From: Chloroflexota bacterium
Lineage (GTDB): Bacteria > Chloroflexota > Limnocylindria > Limnocylindrales > CSP1-4
Direction: 5' to 3'
Length of the DNA: 64,000 nt
Assembly (NCBI GenBank): GCA_040389445.1
Contig: JAZJZX010000003.1
Coordinates: forward strand, 5,298 to 69,297
Part shown: in pieces, positions 22,315-43,950 of the stretch
Layout of the letters: every line of letters starts with the position of its first letter
Position numbering within the stretch: position 1 is the first letter of the stretch
Translations under genes and position numbers: made by a program
Notes under the pieces: model-generated
Databases searched by the model: none
Told to the model about the DNA's origin: nothing
Seen by the model: the letters and a program-made list of their open reading frames with translations, nothing else

Positions 22315-23286
22315 ATGTCCCTCGTCATCGACGGTCTGCGTAAACGATTCGACCGTATCCAGGCGCTCGACGACCTGTCCCTGGAGATCCCGGCCGGCCA
22401 CGTCTACGGGTTTCTCGGCGCCAATGGTGCCGGCAAGACCACCACGATGCGGATCGCGTTGGGTGTCCTCAGGGCGGATGCCGGCACGATCAGCTGGGAC
22501 GGGACGGATCACCGACGACTCCGGCGAGCAACCTGGGGCTACCTCCCCGAGGAGCGCGGCCTCTATCCGAAAATGACCGTCCTGGATCAGCTCGTGTTCT
22601 TTGGCCGGCTGCACGGCGCTTCGGCCGATCAGGCGGCGCGTGACGCCCAGGCCTGGCTCACCCGGCTCCGCGCGCCCGATGTTGCGAATCGCCGCGCCGG
22701 CGAACTGTCCAAGGGCAACCAGCAGAAGGTCCAGTTCCTGGCCGCGGTCATCCACGACCCGGACATCCTCCTGCTGGATGAGCCGTTCACCGGGCTCGAC
22801 CCGGTGAACGTCGTCCTGATCAGACAGGCCATCCTCGAGCTCCGTGGGCGCGGCAAGACCATCGTCCTCTCGACGCACCAGATGGAGACCGTGGAGGCGA
22901 TGTGCGAGTCCATCGCCATCATCGATGCCGGACGAACCGTGATCAGCGGGACACTCCGCGACGTGAAGCGTTCCACCGGCCGGCAGAGTGTCGTCCTGGG
23001 CATCGAGGGGCAGAGTGACCTCGCCTGGGTGGACGGTATTGCCGGGGTCCGCACGCTCCGACCGGGCATCGACCGGGTGGAGCTGGACCTGGAGCCGGGC
23101 ACGGAACCGGGGTCGGTGCTCGCCGCCGCCGTGGCGCGCGGCCTCCGGGTCCGCCATTTCGAGGTCACCGATCCAACCCTGGAGCAGGTGTTCATCGAGT
23201 TGGTGGGACACCCGGCGGCCGACGACGAGACGCTGGCAGCGATGGCGCCTGCCGATACCGGCGTGGCAGCGGACCCGGCGGCATGA
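22315..23286 (+). CDS. ABC exporter ATP-binding subunit (NatA/YhaQ-like)
   Basis: GANGAGKTT, LSKGNQQK, LLDEPFTGLDP, YLPEERGLYP. Confidence 0.92.
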   Translation: MSLVIDGLRKRFDRIQALDDLSLEIPAGHVYGFLGANGAGKTTTMRIALGVLRADAGTISWDGTDHRRLRRATWGYLPEERGLYPKMTVLDQLVFFGRLHGASADQAARDAQAWLTRLRAPDVANRRAGELSKGNQQKVQFLAAVIHDPDILLLDEPFTGLDPVNVVLIRQAILELRGRGKTIVLSTHQMETVEAMCESIAIIDAGRTVISGTLRDVKRSTGRQSVVLGIEGQSDLAWVDGIAGVRTLRPGIDRVELDLEPGTEPGSVLAAAVARGLRVRHFEVTDPTLEQVFIELVGHPAADDETLAAMAPADTGVAADPAA

Positions 23287-24602
23287 CCGGCGAGCACGGC
23301 GCCCGCCACGACGCGACCTTTCCGAATACCCGGATCGTCGCCCGACGCGAATTCCTCGAACGGGTCCGGAGCCGCCCCTACGCCGCGTCGACCGTGCTCC
23401 TGGCGCTGCTCGCGGTCCTCGTGGCCTTCATGCCGATCATCGTCCGGCTCGTCGACCGGGACACCACCACCACGATCGCCATCGTCGCCGACGACGCGGC
23501 CCTGGCCGAACGCTCGTCCTCGATCATGCGCAGCGTCCTCAGCACGGCAAGCGGCGGCTCGCCCGATTCGTGGGTCTTCGAGATCGACACGGACCGCGAG
23601 GCGGTCACCGCGGCCGTCGGCGACGGCCGCGTGGACGGAGCGCTCTTCGCGACCCGCGACGCATCCGGCCGCCTGGACTTCACGTTCCTGACCGGGCAGG
23701 GCCTGGGCGCTGATCGGACCCAGTTCGTCGCCATCGGCACCTTTGCCGTCGCATTCCTGGAGTGGACCGAACTGGTCAAGCCGGCAGGCGAGGTGCCGTT
23801 CCTCGCACCGACGCTGGATATCCTCGCGGGGGCCGGCCCAAGCACGGGCGGCGTGCCGCTGGGCGCGGGCGAGATCGCCAGCCGCCAGTTGCTCGGCACC
23901 GTTCTCGTGGTCGTCCTGTTCCTGACCATGGTCATCTATGGGATGTGGGTGGCCGTGGGAGTCGCCGTCGAGAAGGAAACGCGGGTCATGGAGCTGCTGA
24001 TCAGCGCGGCATCGCCGCGGCAGCTGGTGCTCGGCAAGGTGCTCGGCATCGGCACCGCGGGGCTCCTGCAGTACGGGACGATCCTCGTGCCTGCCCTTGT
24101 CGCGCTTGCGCTCCAGCGACCCATCGGCGAGGCGCTCGGCCTCGGATCGGGCATCACGCCGCCGCTGGCCGGCATCACGCCCGAACTGCTGCTCTCCTAC
24201 GGGCTCTTCTTCGTCCTCGGGTTCACCCTGTACGCCCTGATCTACGCTGCCGCAGGTTCTCTCGTCAGCCGGGTGGAGGACCTCCAGGTCATCGCCCTGC
24301 CCATGAGCCTGCTCGGGATCGCCGGTTACCTCCAGGCCGTGCTCGCTCTCTCGGGCGGACTGTCCACGTTCGTCCGCGTCGCGTCGTTCGTGCCGTTCTG
24401 GAGTCCCTTCGTGATGTTCGCCCGGCTCACCGTCGGTCGGGTGGAGCCGTGGGAACTCGCCATCGCGTTCGGGCTCCTGATCCTCGCCATCGCCCTCGTC
24501 GCCGCTCTCGCCATCCGGGTCTACTCGGCTGGCGTGCTCCTCTATGGGCAGCGACCCGGCGCGCGGCGCATCCTCCGCGCAGTCATCAGCCCGGACGCCT
24601 GA
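23283..24602 (+). CDS. ABC-2 type exporter permease (NatB/YhaP-like)
   Basis: EKETRVMELLIS, GKVLG, FVPFWSPFVM; ATGA overlap with the ATPase. Confidence 0.88.
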   Translation: MTGEHGARHDATFPNTRIVARREFLERVRSRPYAASTVLLALLAVLVAFMPIIVRLVDRDTTTTIAIVADDAALAERSSSIMRSVLSTASGGSPDSWVFEIDTDREAVTAAVGDGRVDGALFATRDASGRLDFTFLTGQGLGADRTQFVAIGTFAVAFLEWTELVKPAGEVPFLAPTLDILAGAGPSTGGVPLGAGEIASRQLLGTVLVVVLFLTMVIYGMWVAVGVAVEKETRVMELLISAASPRQLVLGKVLGIGTAGLLQYGTILVPALVALALQRPIGEALGLGSGITPPLAGITPELLLSYGLFFVLGFTLYALIYAAAGSLVSRVEDLQVIALPMSLLGIAGYLQAVLALSGGLSTFVRVASFVPFWSPFVMFARLTVGRVEPWELAIAFGLLILAIALVAALAIRVYSAGVLLYGQRPGARRILRAVISPDA

Positions 24603-24614
24603 CGCTCCCTCTCA

Positions 24615-24630
24615 GTCCGATTCGTCGGAC
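24615..24630. terminator. UUCG tetraloop hairpin between convergent genes
   Basis: GTCCGA-TTCG-TCGGAC perfect 6-bp stem. Confidence 0.45.
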
Positions 24631-24664
24631 GGGCGGATCGCATGAAGGACGCTCGGCAGGCGCC

Positions 24665-25450
24665 TCAGGCCGGCTCGTCGGGGGTCGCCGGGTCGGCAAG
24701 GGTGGCGTCGAGATCCTCGAGCCCGAGTGGAAGGCGCCGGATCAGGGCCAGCACGGGGGCATCGCCCGTGACCGCATCGACGGTCATTGACGGCGACCGC
24801 TCGACATCCAATCCGGTCTGGCCGGTCGGCGTGAACCGCCACAGCCGGCTCCGGACCCCGCAGAGGTACGGGCTCGATCGATGCCTCGCCAGAACGCCGG
24901 CCAGGCCCTGGGCTGCCACCGCCTGGAACAGCGCCCGGCCCTCGGCGGGGATGGCCGGAACCGTCAGCACCTCGTCCCCGGGTCGGAGCGTCCGGCGAAG
25001 CTGCTCGCGCCGGCGTTCGAGCGGCTGATTCAGGAGCGATCGACCGTCGAGGTGCAACAGGTCGAAAACGAGGAACGCCACGGGCCGCCCGGGCTCACCG
25101 GATCGTCGCCGGGCGAGTTCGCCGGGGTCGGCGCGCCCTGCGGCGTCGACGACGACGAGCTCACCATCGAGTACCGCCGACCGCGCCGCCACACGCACCC
25201 CGAGCCCGGCCAGTTCCGGCGGCATGATCGGCAGGGGAACCCCGTCGGCACCGAGAAACACGACGCTGCCTCCACCCGCCGTCGCCGCGGGTCCGACCAC
25301 GGCGAGGACGCGCAACCCGCCCCAGGATGGCTCGAACAGATGGTCCGCCGAATCGAAGGGCTCGGAGAGCGTTCTGGCGAGCATCGGGCGCAGCGTGACC
25401 GGCGGGTTCGGCAGCGCCGGCTCGAGGCGAAGCGAAAGCTGGTCGGACAT
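24665..25450 (-). CDS. ATP-dependent DNA ligase adenylation-domain homologue (LigC/LigD-like) with degenerate active site
   Basis: PMLAR, FEPSWGGLR (KxDG absent), VLDGELV, FLVFDLL, LERRREQL, SPY..G.RS..W. Confidence 0.8.
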   Translation of the reverse strand: MSDQLSLRLEPALPNPPVTLRPMLARTLSEPFDSADHLFEPSWGGLRVLAVVGPAATAGGGSVVFLGADGVPLPIMPPELAGLGVRVAARSAVLDGELVVVDAAGRADPGELARRRSGEPGRPVAFLVFDLLHLDGRSLLNQPLERRREQLRRTLRPGDEVLTVPAIPAEGRALFQAVAAQGLAGVLARHRSSPYLCGVRSRLWRFTPTGQTGLDVERSPSMTVDAVTGDAPVLALIRRLPLGLEDLDATLADPATPDEPA

Positions 25451-25517
25451 CGCCGGCCGATGGTAGTCGGTAGACTCTGCGGGGAGCGTCAGTCGTCGTT
25501 CGTACGGGAGCAAGCGT

Positions 25518-27686
25518 TTGACATCGAACTCAAAACGAGGCTCGCGTCCCGACGATCTGTACCGGCTCCGCATCCCCACCGACCCCCGGCTGGCGCCCGA
25601 CGGCCGTGCGATCGTCTGTGTCCTGCGGGAGTCTGCACCGGCTCACGATGGCTATCGCTCCGCCATCTGGCGGGTGGCGCTGGATCCCGAAGGATCGGCA
25701 GCCGGGGAGCCCGAGCGACTGACACTCGGCGTTCGCCAGGACACACACCCTCGCTATGCGCCCGACGGCGCGACGCTGGCCTTTCTGAGCGATCGCCGCA
25801 AGGTGGTGGAGGAGGAGCTCGGCACCACGCCGGACCGCGAGGACGCCGTTCAGGTCCATCTCCTCCCGCTGGATCGCCCGGGCGAGGCACGTCGGCTGAC
25901 AGATCTGCCGCGCGGCGTCGACGACTTCGCGTGGTCCCCCGACGGCACCCGCCTCGCCGTGATCTCGGCGTCCCGGGCCGCCGACCGTGCCGGCGACGAC
26001 CGTGCCCGACGACGACTCCGGGACCCTGGGCCGAACCAGCCGCCGATCAGCGACTACTGGTATTTCGATCGTCTCAACTACCAGTTCAATGGAGCCGGCG
26101 TCGTAGCCGGCCGGACCCTGCACCTGTGGATCGTGGACGTGACCTCCGGTGAGGCGCGTCGGCTGACGAACCTGCCGGCCGGGGTCGGGGGCCCCGCGTG
26201 GTCGCCCGACGGGCGACGGATCGCGATCACGACCGGCCGGCGCCGTGACCACGACCTGGCGTCGTTCGCCCGGGTGGTGGTCGTGGACGTCGAGACCGGG
26301 CGGCCGACGACCGTCGCGGAGCATCGAGACGGCTTCTTTCACAGCCCGGTCTGGCTGGGTCGGGGCGACGAGATCGCCGTGGTCGGCGGCGATCTGCCCC
26401 ATGGCTTGTACCGGTCCGACATCTGGGTGTTTGCCGCGGACGGCTCCGAGCCCGAGCGCGGCCGTAACCGTTCAGCCGGGCACGACCTCATGCCTCGCTC
26501 GGCGATGACGAGTGATACGAGTGTCGATGAGGACGACCGCCTGATCGCGTCGAGCGACGGCCGATCCGTGATCTTCACGGCACCGGTGCTGGGCGCCTAC
26601 GAGGCGTGGCGGATCGATATCGGGGATGGGCACCTCGTCCGGTTGACCGAGGATCGGCACTACCTGTCCGCCATCGACGTCGTGGATCTGGGTCCGGGCG
26701 GCCTGATCATCGGGTCGATACGATCGACGCCGACGCTCCTTCCGGAGCTGTCGGTCGGCTTCGCGCCCGCCGCCTGGCGCACCGATGCCCGACCCGCCGG
26801 CGCCCCCGCCCCGGTGGTGCTGCGAACGGTCTCCTCGTTCAACGGCGCGGTCCAGGACGAGGTGTACCTGCGTCCGGCCGTCGAACGATCGTCGAAGGTC
26901 GATGGGCGGGAGATCCAGGGGTGGCTGATCGCGGCCGGGGACGGAATGCAGCCGACGGTCGTCCAGATCCACGGCGGCCCACACAGCCTCTATGGTTGGG
27001 CCCCGTTGCTCGAATTCCAGATCCTCGCTGCGTCGGGGATGTCCGTCTTCTACTGCAATCCGCGCGGCTCCGAAGGCTATGGTCGTGACTTCAACGAGGC
27101 GAATCTCGCGGACTGGGGCGACGGCCCCATGCGTGACGTCATCGCGGGCGTGGATGCGCTGGTCGCCGACGGGCTCGCCGATCCGGATCGGCTCGGGGTC
27201 ACCGGGGGTTCGTACGGCGGGTACCTGACGACCTGGATCGTCGCGCATGACCACCGGTTCCGCGCGGCGATGACCTGCCGCTCCGTGGCCGATCTTTCGA
27301 TGCTCATGCTTACCGGCGATCTCGGCGGCACGGACTGGGCGAAGATGGAGTTGGGCGCCTACCCCTGGGAAGACCCGGACCTGTATCGCGACCTTTCCCC
27401 ATTGACCCACGCGCCGAACATCCGTACGCCGCTGCTGATTCAGCATGCCGAACAGGACCTCCGGACCACGATCGGGCAGGCCGAGGCGCTGTTCTCGGTC
27501 CTGCGAAAACATCGCCGACCAGTCCGGATGATGCGGGTCCCAGGCGAGTCCCACGAGCTCACAAGATCGGGAACCCCGTTTCGTCGTGCGGAAAACCTCA
27601 TCCAGGTCCGCGACTGGTTCGCGCATTTCCTCGTCCAGGGTCGGAGAACGCTCCCGAGGGCGCCTCGGTCGCGCCACGGGCAGTAG
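25518..27686 (+). CDS. S9 family peptidase (acylaminoacyl/prolyl oligopeptidase-like) with PD40 propeller
   Basis: IHGGP, NPRGSEGYG, GGSYGG, QDLRT, ESHEL; repeated WSPDG. Confidence 0.93.
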   Translation: MTSNSKRGSRPDDLYRLRIPTDPRLAPDGRAIVCVLRESAPAHDGYRSAIWRVALDPEGSAAGEPERLTLGVRQDTHPRYAPDGATLAFLSDRRKVVEEELGTTPDREDAVQVHLLPLDRPGEARRLTDLPRGVDDFAWSPDGTRLAVISASRAADRAGDDRARRRLRDPGPNQPPISDYWYFDRLNYQFNGAGVVAGRTLHLWIVDVTSGEARRLTNLPAGVGGPAWSPDGRRIAITTGRRRDHDLASFARVVVVDVETGRPTTVAEHRDGFFHSPVWLGRGDEIAVVGGDLPHGLYRSDIWVFAADGSEPERGRNRSAGHDLMPRSAMTSDTSVDEDDRLIASSDGRSVIFTAPVLGAYEAWRIDIGDGHLVRLTEDRHYLSAIDVVDLGPGGLIIGSIRSTPTLLPELSVGFAPAAWRTDARPAGAPAPVVLRTVSSFNGAVQDEVYLRPAVERSSKVDGREIQGWLIAAGDGMQPTVVQIHGGPHSLYGWAPLLEFQILAASGMSVFYCNPRGSEGYGRDFNEANLADWGDGPMRDVIAGVDALVADGLADPDRLGVTGGSYGGYLTTWIVAHDHRFRAAMTCRSVADLSMLMLTGDLGGTDWAKMELGAYPWEDPDLYRDLSPLTHAPNIRTPLLIQHAEQDLRTTIGQAEALFSVLRKHRRPVRMMRVPGESHELTRSGTPFRRAENLIQVRDWFAHFLVQGRRTLPRAPRSRHGQ

Positions 27687-33991: not shown

Positions 33992-35280
33992 AGTGACGTA
34001 GCGTTTCTTGTGGGCTTTCGAATCGAGGGGGCGTACAACTTCAGGTGGTTCCAACACCCCAAGGAGTACGCCCGATGCGAACTGTACCGGCCCTGACCGA
34101 GCGGACCGAGCGCGAACGGTGGCGCGAGGTCCGCGACGAGGACGACGTGTGGGGCGACCTGCGTCCCGAGCTGCTTGAGGCCGTCCGCTCGATCCTCACC
34201 ACGACGATGGAGGACGAGCTGGCAGCCGAATTGGTCGCCAGCCGCTACGAGCGGACGCCGTGGCGCCGTGACACCCGCAATGGCGCCTATCACCGGACCC
34301 TCGTGACCGAGCTCGGGGCGATCATCGACCTGCGCGTGCCCCGCCGGCGGCTCGTGCCGTACCGGCCCTCGTTCCTGGCCCGGGCGGCGCGCCGGACGCG
34401 CTGCGTCGATCGGGTCCTGCGCCAGGCCTTCCTGCGCGGGCTCTCGACCCGGGAGACGGCAGCCTTGGCCGAGACCCTCACCGGGGTGGCCCTGTCGGCG
34501 GCCGCGGTCAGCCGCCTGGCCCGCGACCTCGATGGTCAGGTCGCGGCCTTCCATCGCCGCCCAATCGCCTTTGCCGCCCGCTATCTGCTCGTGGATGGCC
34601 TGTGGGTGTCGGTCCGCGGCAGCGCCGGTCGCAGCCAGCGGCGAGTCGTCCTCGCCGCCTACGGGATCGACGAGGCGGGCCGTCGCGAACTGCTCGATTA
34701 TCGTCAGGGCGCTTCCGAATCGGCCGTCGAGTGGACTCGCTTCCTGACGTCCCTCGTGACCCGGGGCCTCGATCCCGAGGCCATCCGCCTCGTCACGGCC
34801 GACGGCGCCGGCGGGATCGCCGCCGCGGTCGCCGAGGTCTTTCCGATGGCCGACCTGCAGCGCTGCTGGACACACCGCATCCGGAACCTGCTGGGAGCGA
34901 TACCACTGGGCGAACGGCGGGCCTGTCTCGGTGGCCTGCGGGCGATCTATCGGGCCCGGACCCGGCGGGTCGCGGTGGCCGCCTACTGGCGCTGGGCGAC
35001 GACCTGGCGGACCCGTCACCCGGTTCTCGTCCGCCATCTCGAGCGCGACCTCGACGAGCTCCTCGCCGTGTTCGTCCTGCCCGAGCCGATCCGCCTCCAC
35101 CTGCGGACCACGAACCTCATCGAGCGCGCCTTTCGCGACTCCGTCGACGGATCCGGCCGATGGGTGCACTCGCCGATCGCCGCTCAGCCGACCGGATCCT
35201 CTACGGCCAGGTGCTTCGTCTCAACGAACTCCTGGTCCGCCGCCCCCTCGCGACATTCACACAAGAGACTTGACGTCACC
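33992..35280 (+). mobile_element. IS256-family insertion sequence, 1289 bp, 9-bp target-site duplication
   Basis: TSD AACGCCCTG at 33983-33991 and 35281-35289; imperfect terminal IRs AGTGACGTAGCGTTTCTTGTG and GGTGACGTCAAGTCTCTTGTG. Confidence 0.92.
34075..35273 (+). pseudogene. IS256 (Mutator-like) transposase with a 1-nt deletion frameshift near 35138
   Basis: RNGAYHR, GLSTRE, YLLVDG, LVTADG, QRCWTH, TTNLIERAF; the expected LRRRIRPMG C-terminus continues in another frame. Confidence 0.88.
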
Positions 35281-35386
35281 AACGCCCTGTGCATCCCCAC
35301 GTCCGTGCTGACGCGCCCAGCACAGCAGTGAGAGCCCACTCCATCAGGCTGGGGTTGTCAGAAGCCAGCAGTTGGAGGTGCTCGAG

Positions 35387-36236: not shown

Positions 36237-38051
36237 CTACGGCAACTGGACGCCCGGAACGGTCCGGGCGAGGAACTCGAGGACCACGCCCGTCTGCTTG
36301 ATTCGTTCGTCGATCTGGAAGGGGGCGTGGCCCGAGGGGAACAGGTACAGCTGGTGCGGGTGGTTGCGCGCGGCGAGGCGATCCGTGTAGGCGAGCACCT
36401 GCCCGATCGGGCAGCGACTGTCGGCCTTGCCGGCCAGGAACAGGATCGGCGCCTTGACCTCGTCCACGTACGAGATCGGCGATCGCTCGGCCATCAGCTG
36501 CGGGACCTCGGCCGGGGTTCCGCCCAGCAGGGCGCGGTCGTAGGCCTGGAGAAGCGGGGACAGGTGTTCGTAACCGAGCGCGTAATCGCCGACCGGCACC
36601 CCGGCCACGCCGGAGATGAATCGATCCGGGTGCATGCCGTGCATCAGCAGGGTCAGGTAGCCGCCCCAGGACCAGCCGGCGATCGCGAGCCGCGCCGGAT
36701 CCGCGAGTCCCTTGGCGAGCAGATCGTCCACGCCCGCGTTGATGTCCTCGAGTTCCGGCCAGCCGATATTCCCGATGAGCGTGTCACGCCATCCCGCTCC
36801 GAAGCCGATCGACCCGCGGTAGTTCACCAGCACGACCTGGAACCCGGCGTCGACGTAGGCCTGAAGATCCGGGGCCCAGCGGTCGAGATCGATCGAGGTC
36901 GGGCCGCCGTGGACATGGACGAGCGTCGGATAGGGGGCCTCGCCTTCGGGCTCGATACGCCAGCCCGTGACGGTCTGGCCGTGCGGGTTCGGGAATGACC
37001 ACGGGATGAATGCCCGGCCGGCCGGCGCCGGACCGGCGTCGAGGATCGGCTCATCTCGTCCGACCTGGAGCAGTACGCCCGGGTGCTCGCCATCCTGAAG
37101 TCGGTACCAGACCGAGCCGTCCGGCCGGACGCGGGCGCCAGAAACGGACCCCGCCCGGGTTTCGAGGTCGGTGATGGTGCCGGAAGCGAGTTCGTACCGG
37201 TGCAGCCGATGCCGCCCGTCCTTCAGCTCGACGAGCAGCAACGCGCTCGCATCGGGCCACCAGTCGGCGACTTCGGTGTGGCCGGCCCAGGGCAGGTCGA
37301 GGTCCTGGAACTCCCCGGAGCGCGGGTTCCACACGGCGGGCGCGTGCTCGCCGCGCCGCTCGTGGCCGATGGCCAGGCGGTCGTCCCCCGGGACCGGCGA
37401 CCACGCCTCGGCCGTGAGGGATCCTCCCTCGTCCCGCAGATCGGCAACGGTGGCGCCGGTTCTGGCATCGATGACCCGAAGGGCCGGATGAATAAGATCG
37501 CCGTGCTCGCCGTGTTCGATGGCGATCAGCTTCTCGTCAGCCGACAGGCCGGCCAGCTCCGTGCCGCCGCGAATGGTGGCATCAGCTCCGCCGAGGAGGA
37601 GCGATTCGGTGCTGAACGCCAGCCGTCGCGCCGAGCCCGAATCGTCGATCACATAGAGACCGAAGCCCGAATCGTTGCTGATGACCGCAACGGACCGCGC
37701 CCGCCCTGGAGCCATGCCCTCATCCCAGCCGGTCGGCAGGCCCTCCGCGAGCGGCTCGGGTTCACCGCCCATGAACGGCGCGGCCACCCATTCGCCGGCC
37801 TCGGAGCCCGTTGTATCGCGGTGCCACAGGACCCACTCGCCGTCGGCGCTGACCTGACCGGAAACCAGGCCGATGGGTTCGTGGGTGATCTGACGGCGGA
37901 CGCCGGAATCGAGGTCCCAGGAGTGGAGCTGATAGATGCCGCTCTCGGATGACACGTAGACGATCCGGTTCGGAGCATCCCGCGACCACGTGGGAGACCC
38001 GATGATCGGCGCACGAAAACGGCGCTCCCACACGGGCGTCGGTTCAGTCAT
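36237..38051 (-). CDS. S9 family peptidase
   Basis: VHGGP, NYRGSIGFG, GWSWGG, ADSRC, SGHA. Confidence 0.92.
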   Translation of the reverse strand: MTEPTPVWERRFRAPIIGSPTWSRDAPNRIVYVSSESGIYQLHSWDLDSGVRRQITHEPIGLVSGQVSADGEWVLWHRDTTGSEAGEWVAAPFMGGEPEPLAEGLPTGWDEGMAPGRARSVAVISNDSGFGLYVIDDSGSARRLAFSTESLLLGGADATIRGGTELAGLSADEKLIAIEHGEHGDLIHPALRVIDARTGATVADLRDEGGSLTAEAWSPVPGDDRLAIGHERRGEHAPAVWNPRSGEFQDLDLPWAGHTEVADWWPDASALLLVELKDGRHRLHRYELASGTITDLETRAGSVSGARVRPDGSVWYRLQDGEHPGVLLQVGRDEPILDAGPAPAGRAFIPWSFPNPHGQTVTGWRIEPEGEAPYPTLVHVHGGPTSIDLDRWAPDLQAYVDAGFQVVLVNYRGSIGFGAGWRDTLIGNIGWPELEDINAGVDDLLAKGLADPARLAIAGWSWGGYLTLLMHGMHPDRFISGVAGVPVGDYALGYEHLSPLLQAYDRALLGGTPAEVPQLMAERSPISYVDEVKAPILFLAGKADSRCPIGQVLAYTDRLAARNHPHQLYLFPSGHAPFQIDERIKQTGVVLEFLARTVPGVQLP

Positions 38052-41350: not shown

Positions 41351-42252
<902 letters not shown>

Positions 42253-42256
<4 letters not shown>

Positions 42257-43950
42257 CGGCGACTCTCCAGCCCACAGGATCGGGGTCTGCGCAGCCGACA
42301 CTTTCGGCCCCGTCCCTCGGAGCGCGTCTCGTCGGCCGAGGCTCGGTGTTCGGCAAGGCGTTCCGTGACAGCCTTCGTACCGGGCTGATCCTCGGCGCCG
42401 TCTTCGGACTGCTGATCGCGCTGACCGCTGCCCAGGTCGCCGCGGAATTCACGACCCAGGAATCCCGGCTCGCCTTTGCTCGTCAGCTCGCGGCGCTCCC
42501 CAAGGTGCTGCAGGGCATGCTGGGTGAACCGATCCGGATCGACACCCTGGGCGGATTCGTCTCGTGGCGCCTGTTCAACTTCTTCCCGGTCATGTTCGGC
42601 ATCTGGTCCGTGGTCGCGCTGTCGGGGACGCTCGCAGGCGAGCTCGCACGAGGCAGCCTGGACCTCGTGGCGGCCACGCCCGTCGCCCGCCGGCGCCTGG
42701 CGCTCGGCAAGATCGGTGCCTACCTGGCCGCGATCAGCGTCCCGGTCCTGATCCTGGGAATCGTGACGTATGCGAGCGTCAACGGGCTGGCCTCCCTGCC
42801 CGGCGACAGCGTTTCGCTGGAGGCCATGGCAGGTCAGTCCGTGTGGCTCTTCATCGTGCTCCTCGCGCCCGGCGCTGCTGCGTTCGCAGTCGCTCCGATC
42901 CTGGGTCGGGGCGGAGCACTCGCGGTCGGCGCAACGGCACTGTTCGCGAGCTTCCTCGTGTCTGCCTATTCGGACACCGTGCCGGCGTTCGCGTCGCTCC
43001 GGGGTCTTTCCTTCCTCGCGATCACCGCGGGACACCGGCCGCTGGCCGGCGAATGGGACTGGGCGGCGGTCGGTCTGCTGGCCATGATCACGGCCGCCCT
43101 CCTGCTCATGGGAATCCTGGCCTTCGAGCGACGCGATCTGATCGTCCCGTCGGGTAGCCGGTTCCGGGTGCCGGCCCTGCGGCTGTGGATCACTGGCCCA
43201 TTCCTGCGCGGGATCGGCGAGCGGTTGCCGGCAGCCCTGGCCTGGGGCTTCGGCCTCGGGCTGTACGGCCTGATCATCGCCACCTCCGCCGATGAGTTCG
43301 TCGCCCAGATCGGGAAGATCCCGCAGATCGCCGACATGGTGCGGCGCATCTTCCCCGATGCCGATATCTTCTCGACCGGCGGCTTCCTGCAACTCGCCTT
43401 CTTTCAGGAGGGCATCGTGATGGTCGGCCTGGCGGCCTCCGTGTTCGTCGCCGGCTGGGCGTCCGATGAGGGCGACCGGAGGCTCGAGGTCATCCTCGCC
43501 GCGCCGCTCGGGCGCATCGGGTGGGCCGTCCGCAGCGGTCTCGCCGTGTTCGGAGCCATCGGAATCACCACCGTGATCATGGCCGCCGGGGTCGCGGCCG
43601 GCGCAGCCATCCAGGGCAGCGACCCGGTCGAGCCGGCCATCGGGATCCTCGTCCTGGGCCTGTACGGCATGGCCCTGGGAGGCGTGGGCCTGGCCGTTGG
43701 GGGGCTCATCCGACCGTCGCTCGCGGCTCCCGTGACGCTCGTCCTCGGGCTTGGCTGGTACCTGCTCGACATTCTTGGGGCGATCCTCAAATTGCCGGAC
43801 TTCGTCGTCGATCTCGCCCTGAATCGGCATCTCGGGCAGCCGATCATCGGGGTCTTCGACGTCGCCGGCCTCCTTGCCTCCGCGGTGCTCGCCTTCGGCG
43901 GGCTCGCGATCGCAGCCATCGGCATCCAGCGACGCGATCTCGGCCGGTAG
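42253..43950 (+). CDS. ABC-2 exporter permease, two-repeat (polyketide/tetronasin-resistance-like)
   Basis: Duplicated permease halves each ending in RRDL; ELARGSLDL and DEGDRRLE motifs. Confidence 0.8.

Follow-up and report, generated by a model that had tools for sequence, protein, structure and literature searches.

A 64,000-nucleotide stretch of contig JAZJZX010000003.1 from a Chloroflexota bacterium (GCA_040389445.1), referred to here as the window, contains a gene for a 261 amino acid homolog of the ATP-dependent DNA ligases whose active site has been dismantled. The lysine which serves as the nucleophile in motif I is absent from every one of 245 family members collected, and yet the gene is under purifying selection. 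The nucleotidyltransferase (NTase) domain has lost its OB domain and is flanked by two short, strictly conserved peptides, the first of which fits the pattern of a beta-clamp-binding motif. The protein is in all likelihood a selected pseudo-enzyme, that is, an enzyme homolog which lacks the essential catalytic residues but is maintained by purifying selection, as the initial annotation of this DNA had suggested, rather than the product of a decaying gene.

The gene and the parts of its product are located as follows, with the predicted local distance difference test (pLDDT) scores of an AlphaFold2 (AF2) model and the corresponding sequences of the Mycobacterium tuberculosis (Mtb) LigD ligase domain.

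24665–25450, minus strand: complete coding sequence, stop codon included, ATG start at 25450; lysine-free LigD-type NTase-domain protein of 261 amino acids.
25421–25444, minus strand: N-terminal peptide D3-QLSLRL-E10; fits QLxLxL; pLDDT 61, predicted flexible.
24824–25390, minus strand: NTase (adenylation) core, residues 21–209; pLDDT >95; superposes on the Mtb LigD ligase domain.
25310–25336, minus strand: motif I remnant FEPSWGGLR, residues 39–47; Mtb LigD FEGKWDGYR; Lys replaced by Ser and Asp by Gly, E40 and R47 kept.
25157–25171, minus strand: motif III LDGEL, residues 94–98; kept.
25058–25072, minus strand: motif IIIa LVFDL, residues 127–131; kept (FDLL).
24884–24904, minus strand: motif IV remnant LAGVLAR, residues 183–189; AGVLAR against LigD EGVIAK; Glu replaced by Ala and Lys by Arg.
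24827–24844, minus strand: motif V remnant LWRFTP, residues 203–208; WRFTP against LigD WLKDK; both Lys lost.
24758–24823, minus strand: variable low-complexity linker, residues 210–231, in the place of the OB domain; pLDDT about 53.
24722–24757, minus strand: C-terminal peptide P232-VLALIRRLPL-G243; invariant; predicted short helix at 232–239.

The active site was examined by aligning the protein to Mtb LigD (1vs0/6nhx) and combining the alignment with the published residue roles (PMC8656161). Seven of the eight residues which contact the ATP phosphates or the metal are replaced (H465 by T27, K481 by S42, D483 by G44, R501 by A68, E613 by A184, K635 by F206 and K637 by P208), leaving R629 (R200) as the sole one retained; within motif V, R205 pairs with LigD L634. 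Among the adenosine contacts, E479 (E40), R486 (R47), E530 (E97) and the motif IIIa phenylalanine (F129) are kept, while K618 has become R189, and the SxYxxGxRSxxW stretch is retained as well. The alignment bears out the initial annotation on each motif: EPSWGGLR stands in motif I, with the serine codon TCC at 25327–25325, AGVLAR replaces EGxxxK in motif IV, WRFTP occupies motif V, and the scaffold motifs III and IIIa are preserved (LDGE and FDLL). Since the phosphate and metal residues are lost, and in Mtb LigD the single mutations E613A or K637A abolish nick sealing (PMC8656161), this is not a canonical ligase. The motif I lysine of KxDGxR, motif IV EGxxxK, motif V xxKxK and the OB domain with motif VI, by which a DNA ligase is recognized, are all missing; judged from the residues present, the lysyl-AMP intermediate cannot form, and neither self-adenylylation nor nick sealing is predicted. 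Retention of the adenosine pocket with removal of the chemistry is unlike the outcome of random decay.

The window protein has no lysine at all, as is also true of 55 of its 120 closest homologs, and no column of the family alignment has a conserved lysine. The window is 69% G+C, and five neighboring proteins which were checked contain 0.5–2% lysine and 7–11% arginine. Against this background the lack of lysine in a protein of 261 residues is only mildly unusual, and the argument is carried by the lost motif positions, not by the lysine count.

The protein has the homologous NTase fold of the ATP-dependent DNA ligases (PF01068, DNA_ligase_A_M, E 7e-14), with the Pfam match limited to profile positions 71–200, the second half. 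The best NCBIfam matches are models of LigD and of ligases of non-homologous end joining (NHEJ), all scoring far under cut-off (TIGR02779, 90.6 bits against 227.75; NF007210, 99.1 bits against 989). Among PDB entries, the ligase domain of Mtb LigD matches best (1vs0/6nhx, E 6e-16). An AF2 model built on a 92-sequence alignment which included the active sister clade described below reached pLDDT 87.8 and a predicted template modeling score of 0.84, whereas 36 close homologs alone gave an unusable model (pLDDT 55). The predicted core superposes on Mtb LigD (6nhx/6nhz/1vs0) with a root-mean-square deviation of 2.3–2.8 Å at 29–30% identity, and Foldseek matches the model to LigD, Lig1 and archaeal ligases with probability 1.00. 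Only some 55 residues remain after motif V, which in the model form a disordered linker and one short helix, and there is no match to the OB domain profile PF04679 in the protein, in agreement with the initial annotation. PHROGs returned a generic ATP-dependent ligase family as sole match, and no PADLOC defence model matched the protein. The gene is an intact open reading frame, as annotated initially, with an ATG start and 261 codons; a longer GTG-initiated frame extending to 25579 finds no support, almost all homologs beginning with MxDQLSL at the position of the ATG at 25450.

The initial homology search returned 120 proteins of 245–298 amino acids, 63–78% identical to the window protein except for P0102 (49%), and nearly all of the named ones derive from metagenome-assembled genomes of Chloroflexota/Limnocylindrales. 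When GTDB was scanned with a single genome for each species, relatives turned up in 368 stretches, with one locus in each assembly listed, and here too Limnocylindrales accounted for almost all. A profile search of 1.8 billion representatives added more distant lysine-less members, and lysine-containing ligases appeared only from E about 1e-40. In P0102, about 55 residues which include motif III are duplicated in tandem within the protein (alignment columns 107–161).

At the position of the motif I lysine the 245 members have serine (105), alanine (49), tryptophan (41), threonine (19), valine (12), asparagine (6), arginine (5), phenylalanine (2), histidine (2), or isoleucine, cysteine or glutamate, and in no case lysine, while the surrounding FEP, WGG and R are invariant. 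The initial annotation had proposed to test whether the replacement of lysine by serine is conserved. Loss of the lysine does hold in 245 of 245, but serine itself is not fixed; since the position varies among S, A, W, T, V, N and R, the conserved feature is, as the sequences align, the loss of lysine and not serine as such.

Selection was estimated from 79 distinct orthologous coding sequences, in all of which the frame is intact. The Nei-Gojobori ratio of nonsynonymous to synonymous substitution rates (dN/dS, omega) lies at 0.07–0.16 in the most similar pairs, and its median over pairs whose dS is below 1 is 0.31; a strong bias of G+C at third codon positions affects dS, and omega of distant pairs is rough. 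By region, omega is 0.23 for the NTase core, 0.17 for the C-terminal motif and 0.38 for the N-terminal peptide, as against 0.82 for the linker and 0.75 for the tail. The ratio is thus below 1, the second point which the initial annotation had proposed to test. Dozens of residues are invariant across the family alignment, and the closest homologs show neither KxDG nor neutral decay. Across genomes the window protein (59–76% identity) evolves no faster than the neighboring genes for an S9 peptidase (orthologs 49–72%) and an ABC-2 permease (43–85%).

Five segments can be distinguished in the alignment: the N-terminal peptide, the NTase core, the low-complexity linker of variable length, the C-terminal peptide and a variable acidic tail. 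The terminal segments of the window protein read MSDQLSLRLEPA at the N-terminus and PVLALIRRLPLGLE at the C-terminus. The family consensus is [TAS]-D-Q-L-S-L-R-L-[ED]-[PA] for the former, with glutamine as residue 4, and P-V-L-A-L-I-R-R-L-P-L-[GDEL] for the latter. The N-terminal motif occurs in 240 of the 245 members (Q and L invariant), the C-terminal one in 239, and both in 234. Residues 4–9, QLSLRL, match QLxLxL, the hexameric beta-clamp-binding motif (PMC4564189), of which QLSLPL is a strong, or strengthened, form (PMC3664792). Given the local amino acid composition, QLx[LFIM]x[LF] would turn up by chance among a protein's first 10 residues with a probability of about 7e-4, and 37 other window proteins gave no match. 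A docking peptide would be expected to lie at the very end of the chain, to be flexible and to be strictly conserved, all of which applies here, the flexibility by prediction. The protein has the sequence feature of clamp clients (QLxLF or QLxLxL in a flexible, conserved terminal segment), and binding to the clamp is predicted. The C-terminal peptide was considered as a second clamp-binding motif and rejected as a firm assignment, since RLPL[GDE] has no glutamine, its position 2 is not hydrophobic, and an acidic residue often stands at position 6.

The closest active relatives found to share both peptides are the 343 amino acid ligases of Candidatus Dormibacterota (for example P0183, P0402 and P0424), which are 35–39% identical to the window protein. 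They have all the catalytic motifs (KWDG, EGVVAK and WLKVK) and the OB domain (PF04679), none of which the window protein has, and like it are without a POL domain. Their N-terminal DQLQI[ED]LE and extreme C-terminal AYDLTRFPF are invariant within the clade and correspond to DQLSLRLE and, in the LTRFPF portion, to LIRRLPL. Their genes lie directly downstream of Ku in a Ku-ligase operon, which the window protein's gene does not share. Distant lysine-less members also keep both peptides, and two of them (P0147 and P0250) have the OB domain too; another, P0200, begins with MPQLSLF and so has the canonical pentameric clamp-binding form QLSLF. A search of metagenome contigs for the gene context of P0147 returned only relatives 27–48% identical, mostly ordinary LigD. 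Because the peptides are shared with the active, Ku-linked Dormibacterota ligases and with lysine-less relatives which still have the OB domain, both appear to be older than the loss of activity and to belong to the lineage of Ku-linked end-joining ligases. The window protein, in turn, probably descends from such an end-joining ligase with its docking signals retained. The connection to NHEJ is one of ancestry; for the Chloroflexota source organism itself it is putative.

In sum, a LigD-type NTase domain has shed the OB domain, the nucleophilic lysine and almost every residue for phosphate and metal, whereas the fold, the adenosine cradle and the two peptides stayed. We propose that the DQLSLRLE peptide would tether the protein to the sliding clamp on DNA, and that the C-terminal helix would bind the same or a second partner. 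Once on DNA, the dead domain would bind a nick, an end or an adenylate-type ligand without sealing anything, serving as adaptor, sensor or blocker in the manner of the clamp-bound dead polymerase ImuB. A non-catalytic adaptor, tethered to a partner and placing a dead ligase adenylation domain on DNA, is a reading that may well be right, if not quite a probable one. For the identity of the partner we tentatively choose the beta clamp, on the strength of the motif, over Ku as the main alternative. The most detailed version, in which a class-wide pseudo-ligase rides the clamp and reads nicks, ends or adenylated DNA in the wake of the replisome or where DNA is under repair, while the helix PVLALIRRLPL recruits or blocks factors, is possible but doubtful. 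The roles put forward in the initial annotation, a sensor of nucleotides or DNA ends, a modulator of NHEJ or a decoy, are still candidates, made more specific by the kept residues of the adenosine pocket and by the peptides in common with the active, Ku-linked ligase.

Several points weigh against this proposal. A match to a six-residue pattern is by itself weak evidence for binding to the clamp. The C-terminal motif departs from the clamp-binding consensus, and its partner is only putative. The same N-terminal peptide occurs in an active, Ku-adjacent ligase, and the partner could be Ku rather than the clamp, while the retained pocket residues could serve the stability of the fold only. None of the loci has a DNA replication or repair gene near the pseudo-ligase gene, and the context gives no functional support. 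Finally, no RNA run contains the pseudo-ligase sequence; the DNA metagenomes which do contain it are from watershed, groundwater, aquatic and wastewater samples.

Ku must be taken seriously as another candidate partner of one or both peptides, given that the active sister ligase is linked to it and has no POL domain. The protein would then be an accessory of Ku-dependent end joining whose terminal peptides are inherited Ku-docking signals, and the dead domain would sit on Ku-bound ends as a scaffold, end protector or decoy which modulates end joining by another ligase. We hold this explanation to be unlikely. The position of the peptide-sharing active ligases immediately downstream of Ku speaks for such a role, and the review literature ascribes the recruitment of LigD to contacts with Ku. 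On the other hand, a tblastn search of the 64-kb window and of 84 loci, each spanning some 20 kb about the pseudo-ligase gene, detected no Ku, no LigD partner is encoded near it, and the fixed neighbors are a peptidase, an aldolase-family gene and transporters. The N-terminal peptide is an exact fit to the clamp motif, and no bacterial Ku-binding peptide of this kind was found in the literature searched (on bacterial ligases which are inactive or have no lysine, ligases which bind the clamp, contacts between Ku and LigD in bacteria, and repair in Limnocylindria).

Less probable is a sensor of free nucleotides or nucleosides, in which the pocket binds ATP, AMP, an NAD-derived or a similar compound and the peptides signal to a partner other than DNA proteins. 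Retained adenosine contacts in a pocket stripped of its phosphate and metal ligands, and the lack of DNA repair neighbors, are in keeping with this idea; but with almost all phosphate ligands missing the affinity for nucleotides may be poor, and the terminal peptides are common to a bona fide DNA ligase, the N-terminal one matching a docking motif of the DNA clamp.

It is very improbable that the protein is still an enzyme which transfers nucleotidyl groups or catalyzes some other reaction, be it through a non-canonical nucleophile or in trans together with a partner. The nearly invariant H37 and the invariant R47, E40 and E97 around the pocket might be read in this way. Against it stand the lack of a conserved lysine anywhere in the alignment and the free variation at the nucleophile position, as well as the loss of the metal ligands D483 and E613 and of both motif V lysines, of which loss of E613 or K637 alone ends sealing in Mtb LigD (PMC8656161), and the absence of the OB domain with motif VI, which is needed for step 1. 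A decaying relic without function, which the loss of all catalytic residues and of the OB domain might have indicated, is refuted by the intact frame in 79 of 79 coding sequences, the low omega of close pairs, the invariant residues, the occurrence in 368 species genomes and a conserved promoter-like element.

The protein can be compared with several known systems. Hda carries QLSLPL at its N-terminus. The window protein has a hexapeptide of the same pattern at the same extreme position (QLSLRL), though Hda is an AAA+ protein which regulates DnaA, and there is no homology outside the peptide. The Mtb LigD ligase domain (Rv0938; 1VS0, 6NHX and 6NHZ) is the best match in sequence and structure, and shares motifs III and IIIa and the SxYxxGxRSxxW stretch; the window protein differs in having no lysine nucleophile, motif I aspartate, motif Ia arginine, motif IV glutamate or motif V lysine pair, no OB, POL or PE domain and no Ku neighbor, and in having the extra conserved terminal peptides. 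ImuB, a catalytically inactive Y-family polymerase of the mycobacterial mutasome, is a clamp-docked adaptor which acts through a short peptide (PMC11791113, PMC10421592). The shared logic is that an enzyme fold without catalytic residues is kept as an adaptor; the folds are unrelated, and clamp binding is experimentally supported for ImuB but predicted from the motif for the window protein. Ligases are recruited by sliding clamps elsewhere, as with T4 ligase and its clamp and LigA and the beta clamp (PMC6212786, PMC4976356), and Lig1-PCNA and archaeal ligase-PCNA complexes are among the structure matches of the AF2 model (PDB 7qnz, 7rpo). These are ligase-family proteins on clamps as well, but active ones, whereas the window protein cannot form lysyl-AMP.

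The gene is monocistronic and lies in fixed synteny in 83 of 84 loci; members only 48% identical show this order too. Nothing connected with DNA metabolism is encoded nearby. On one flank is a divergent S9 peptidase gene or, where the peptidase is absent, a DeoC-family (aldolase-family) gene, and on the other a convergent ABC-2 permease/ATPase pair. The following elements were found in the intergenic region shared with the peptidase gene.

25460–25465, minus strand: TACCAT, candidate -10 of the TANNNT type; lies 9 nt upstream of the ATG, and the intervening bases contain no Shine-Dalgarno sequence.
25471–25476, plus strand: TAGACT, candidate -10 of the divergently transcribed S9 peptidase gene, which starts at 25518; present in 59 of 80 sequences.

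The initial annotation had taken TACCAT for a preserved -10. The hexamer is indeed present (25465–25460) and occurs within -20 to -5 in 77 of 80 distinct orthologous upstream sequences, but a sigma-70 consensus scan found no promoter and did not flag it. TAGACT (AGTCTA on the other strand) lies 5 bp from TACCAT and is less conserved where the peptidase gene is absent. The two TANNNT hexamers stand back to back at 25460–25476 within an element of some 20 nt, gAGTCTAgcggCTACCATCg, which is conserved among the Limnocylindrales loci, and the center of this element, TAGCGGCTA, is a 9-bp palindrome which may be the site of a regulator. The arrangement suggests that each hexamer belongs to a promoter of the TANNNT type, the two facing away from one another, and that the mRNA is leaderless or nearly so. 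The only terminator-like match of the scan lies inside the coding sequence and was taken as chance, and no Rfam family was found in 23000–27000.

The S9 peptidase adjoining the pseudo-ligase gene (25518–27686, plus strand) contains Tricorn_N/PD40 beta-propeller repeats. A second, different S9-family peptidase is encoded at 36237–38051 on the minus strand, both lying within 12 kb. A Mutator-family transposase (PF00872, E 2e-73) is located at 34045–35331 on the plus strand amid housekeeping genes, and the rest of the window encodes a prolyl-tRNA synthetase, histidine kinase, P-type ATPase, aldehyde dehydrogenase, beta-galactosidase and argininosuccinate lyase. We considered whether the adjoining ABC transporter is a remnant of the ABC-ABC2-Ku-ligase order of Dormibacterota, and rejected this, its ATPase being only 29% identical. 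The ortholog of the Dormibacterota ATPase (51% identity), which stands directly upstream of the Ku-ligase operon there (L087/L088), is found at 41351–42256, some 16 kb away. In the window the ABC ATPase is accompanied by a 565 amino acid permease (41351–43950, plus strand), and no Ku follows.

Two further groups of relatives without the motif I lysine were noted. In the first (L096, 650–2374; L097, 6870–8573; L102, 3137–4582), a separate lysine-less LigD derivative has a PE domain fused to the NTase domain, with FEVAWPGAR at motif I, LLDAVIV or LLDGVIV at motif III; the OB domain is apparently missing, and ligase chemistry would seem to have been lost independently here. The second (P0192, P0193, P0215, P0216, P0230, P0249 and P0263) comprises LigD-like proteins of 320–355 amino acids which keep the OB domain and the motif IV lysine but not that of motif I (for example YELDWGGVR, FEVLWGGVR and YEVIWAGVR), and have no QL peptide. 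Relatives of the ligases without the lysine thus seem to have originated on several occasions.

In the literature searched, neither a bacterial ligase family without the lysine nor this pair of motifs was found described. The fold and the ancestry in LigD are known; what appears to be new there is that, across the class and in combination, the active site has been dismantled, the OB domain lost and two putative docking peptides retained. In public records members are named "ATP-dependent DNA ligase" or "bifunctional NHEJ protein LigD", names which, judged by sequence, are functionally wrong since no family member has lysine at the position of the motif I nucleophile. Limnocylindrales, which metagenome matches show to be widespread in samples of soil, groundwater and freshwater, would be wrongly assigned an end-joining ligase in reconstructions of repair and metabolism.

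The family is a natural experiment in which the residues for phosphoryl transfer have been removed while the adenosine pocket and two putative docking peptides have long been retained, and it offers a testable path by which an active ligase linked to Ku could have become a dead one. Should the N-terminal peptide bind the clamp, a non-catalytic adaptor of the ligase fold would join the clamp toolbelt; a clamp-riding pseudo-ligase would, if true, be a new kind of clamp client and, in the literature searched, the first non-catalytic member of the bacterial DNA ligase family. The several independent lysine-less relatives of LigD suggest that pseudo-ligases are a recurrent and overlooked theme.

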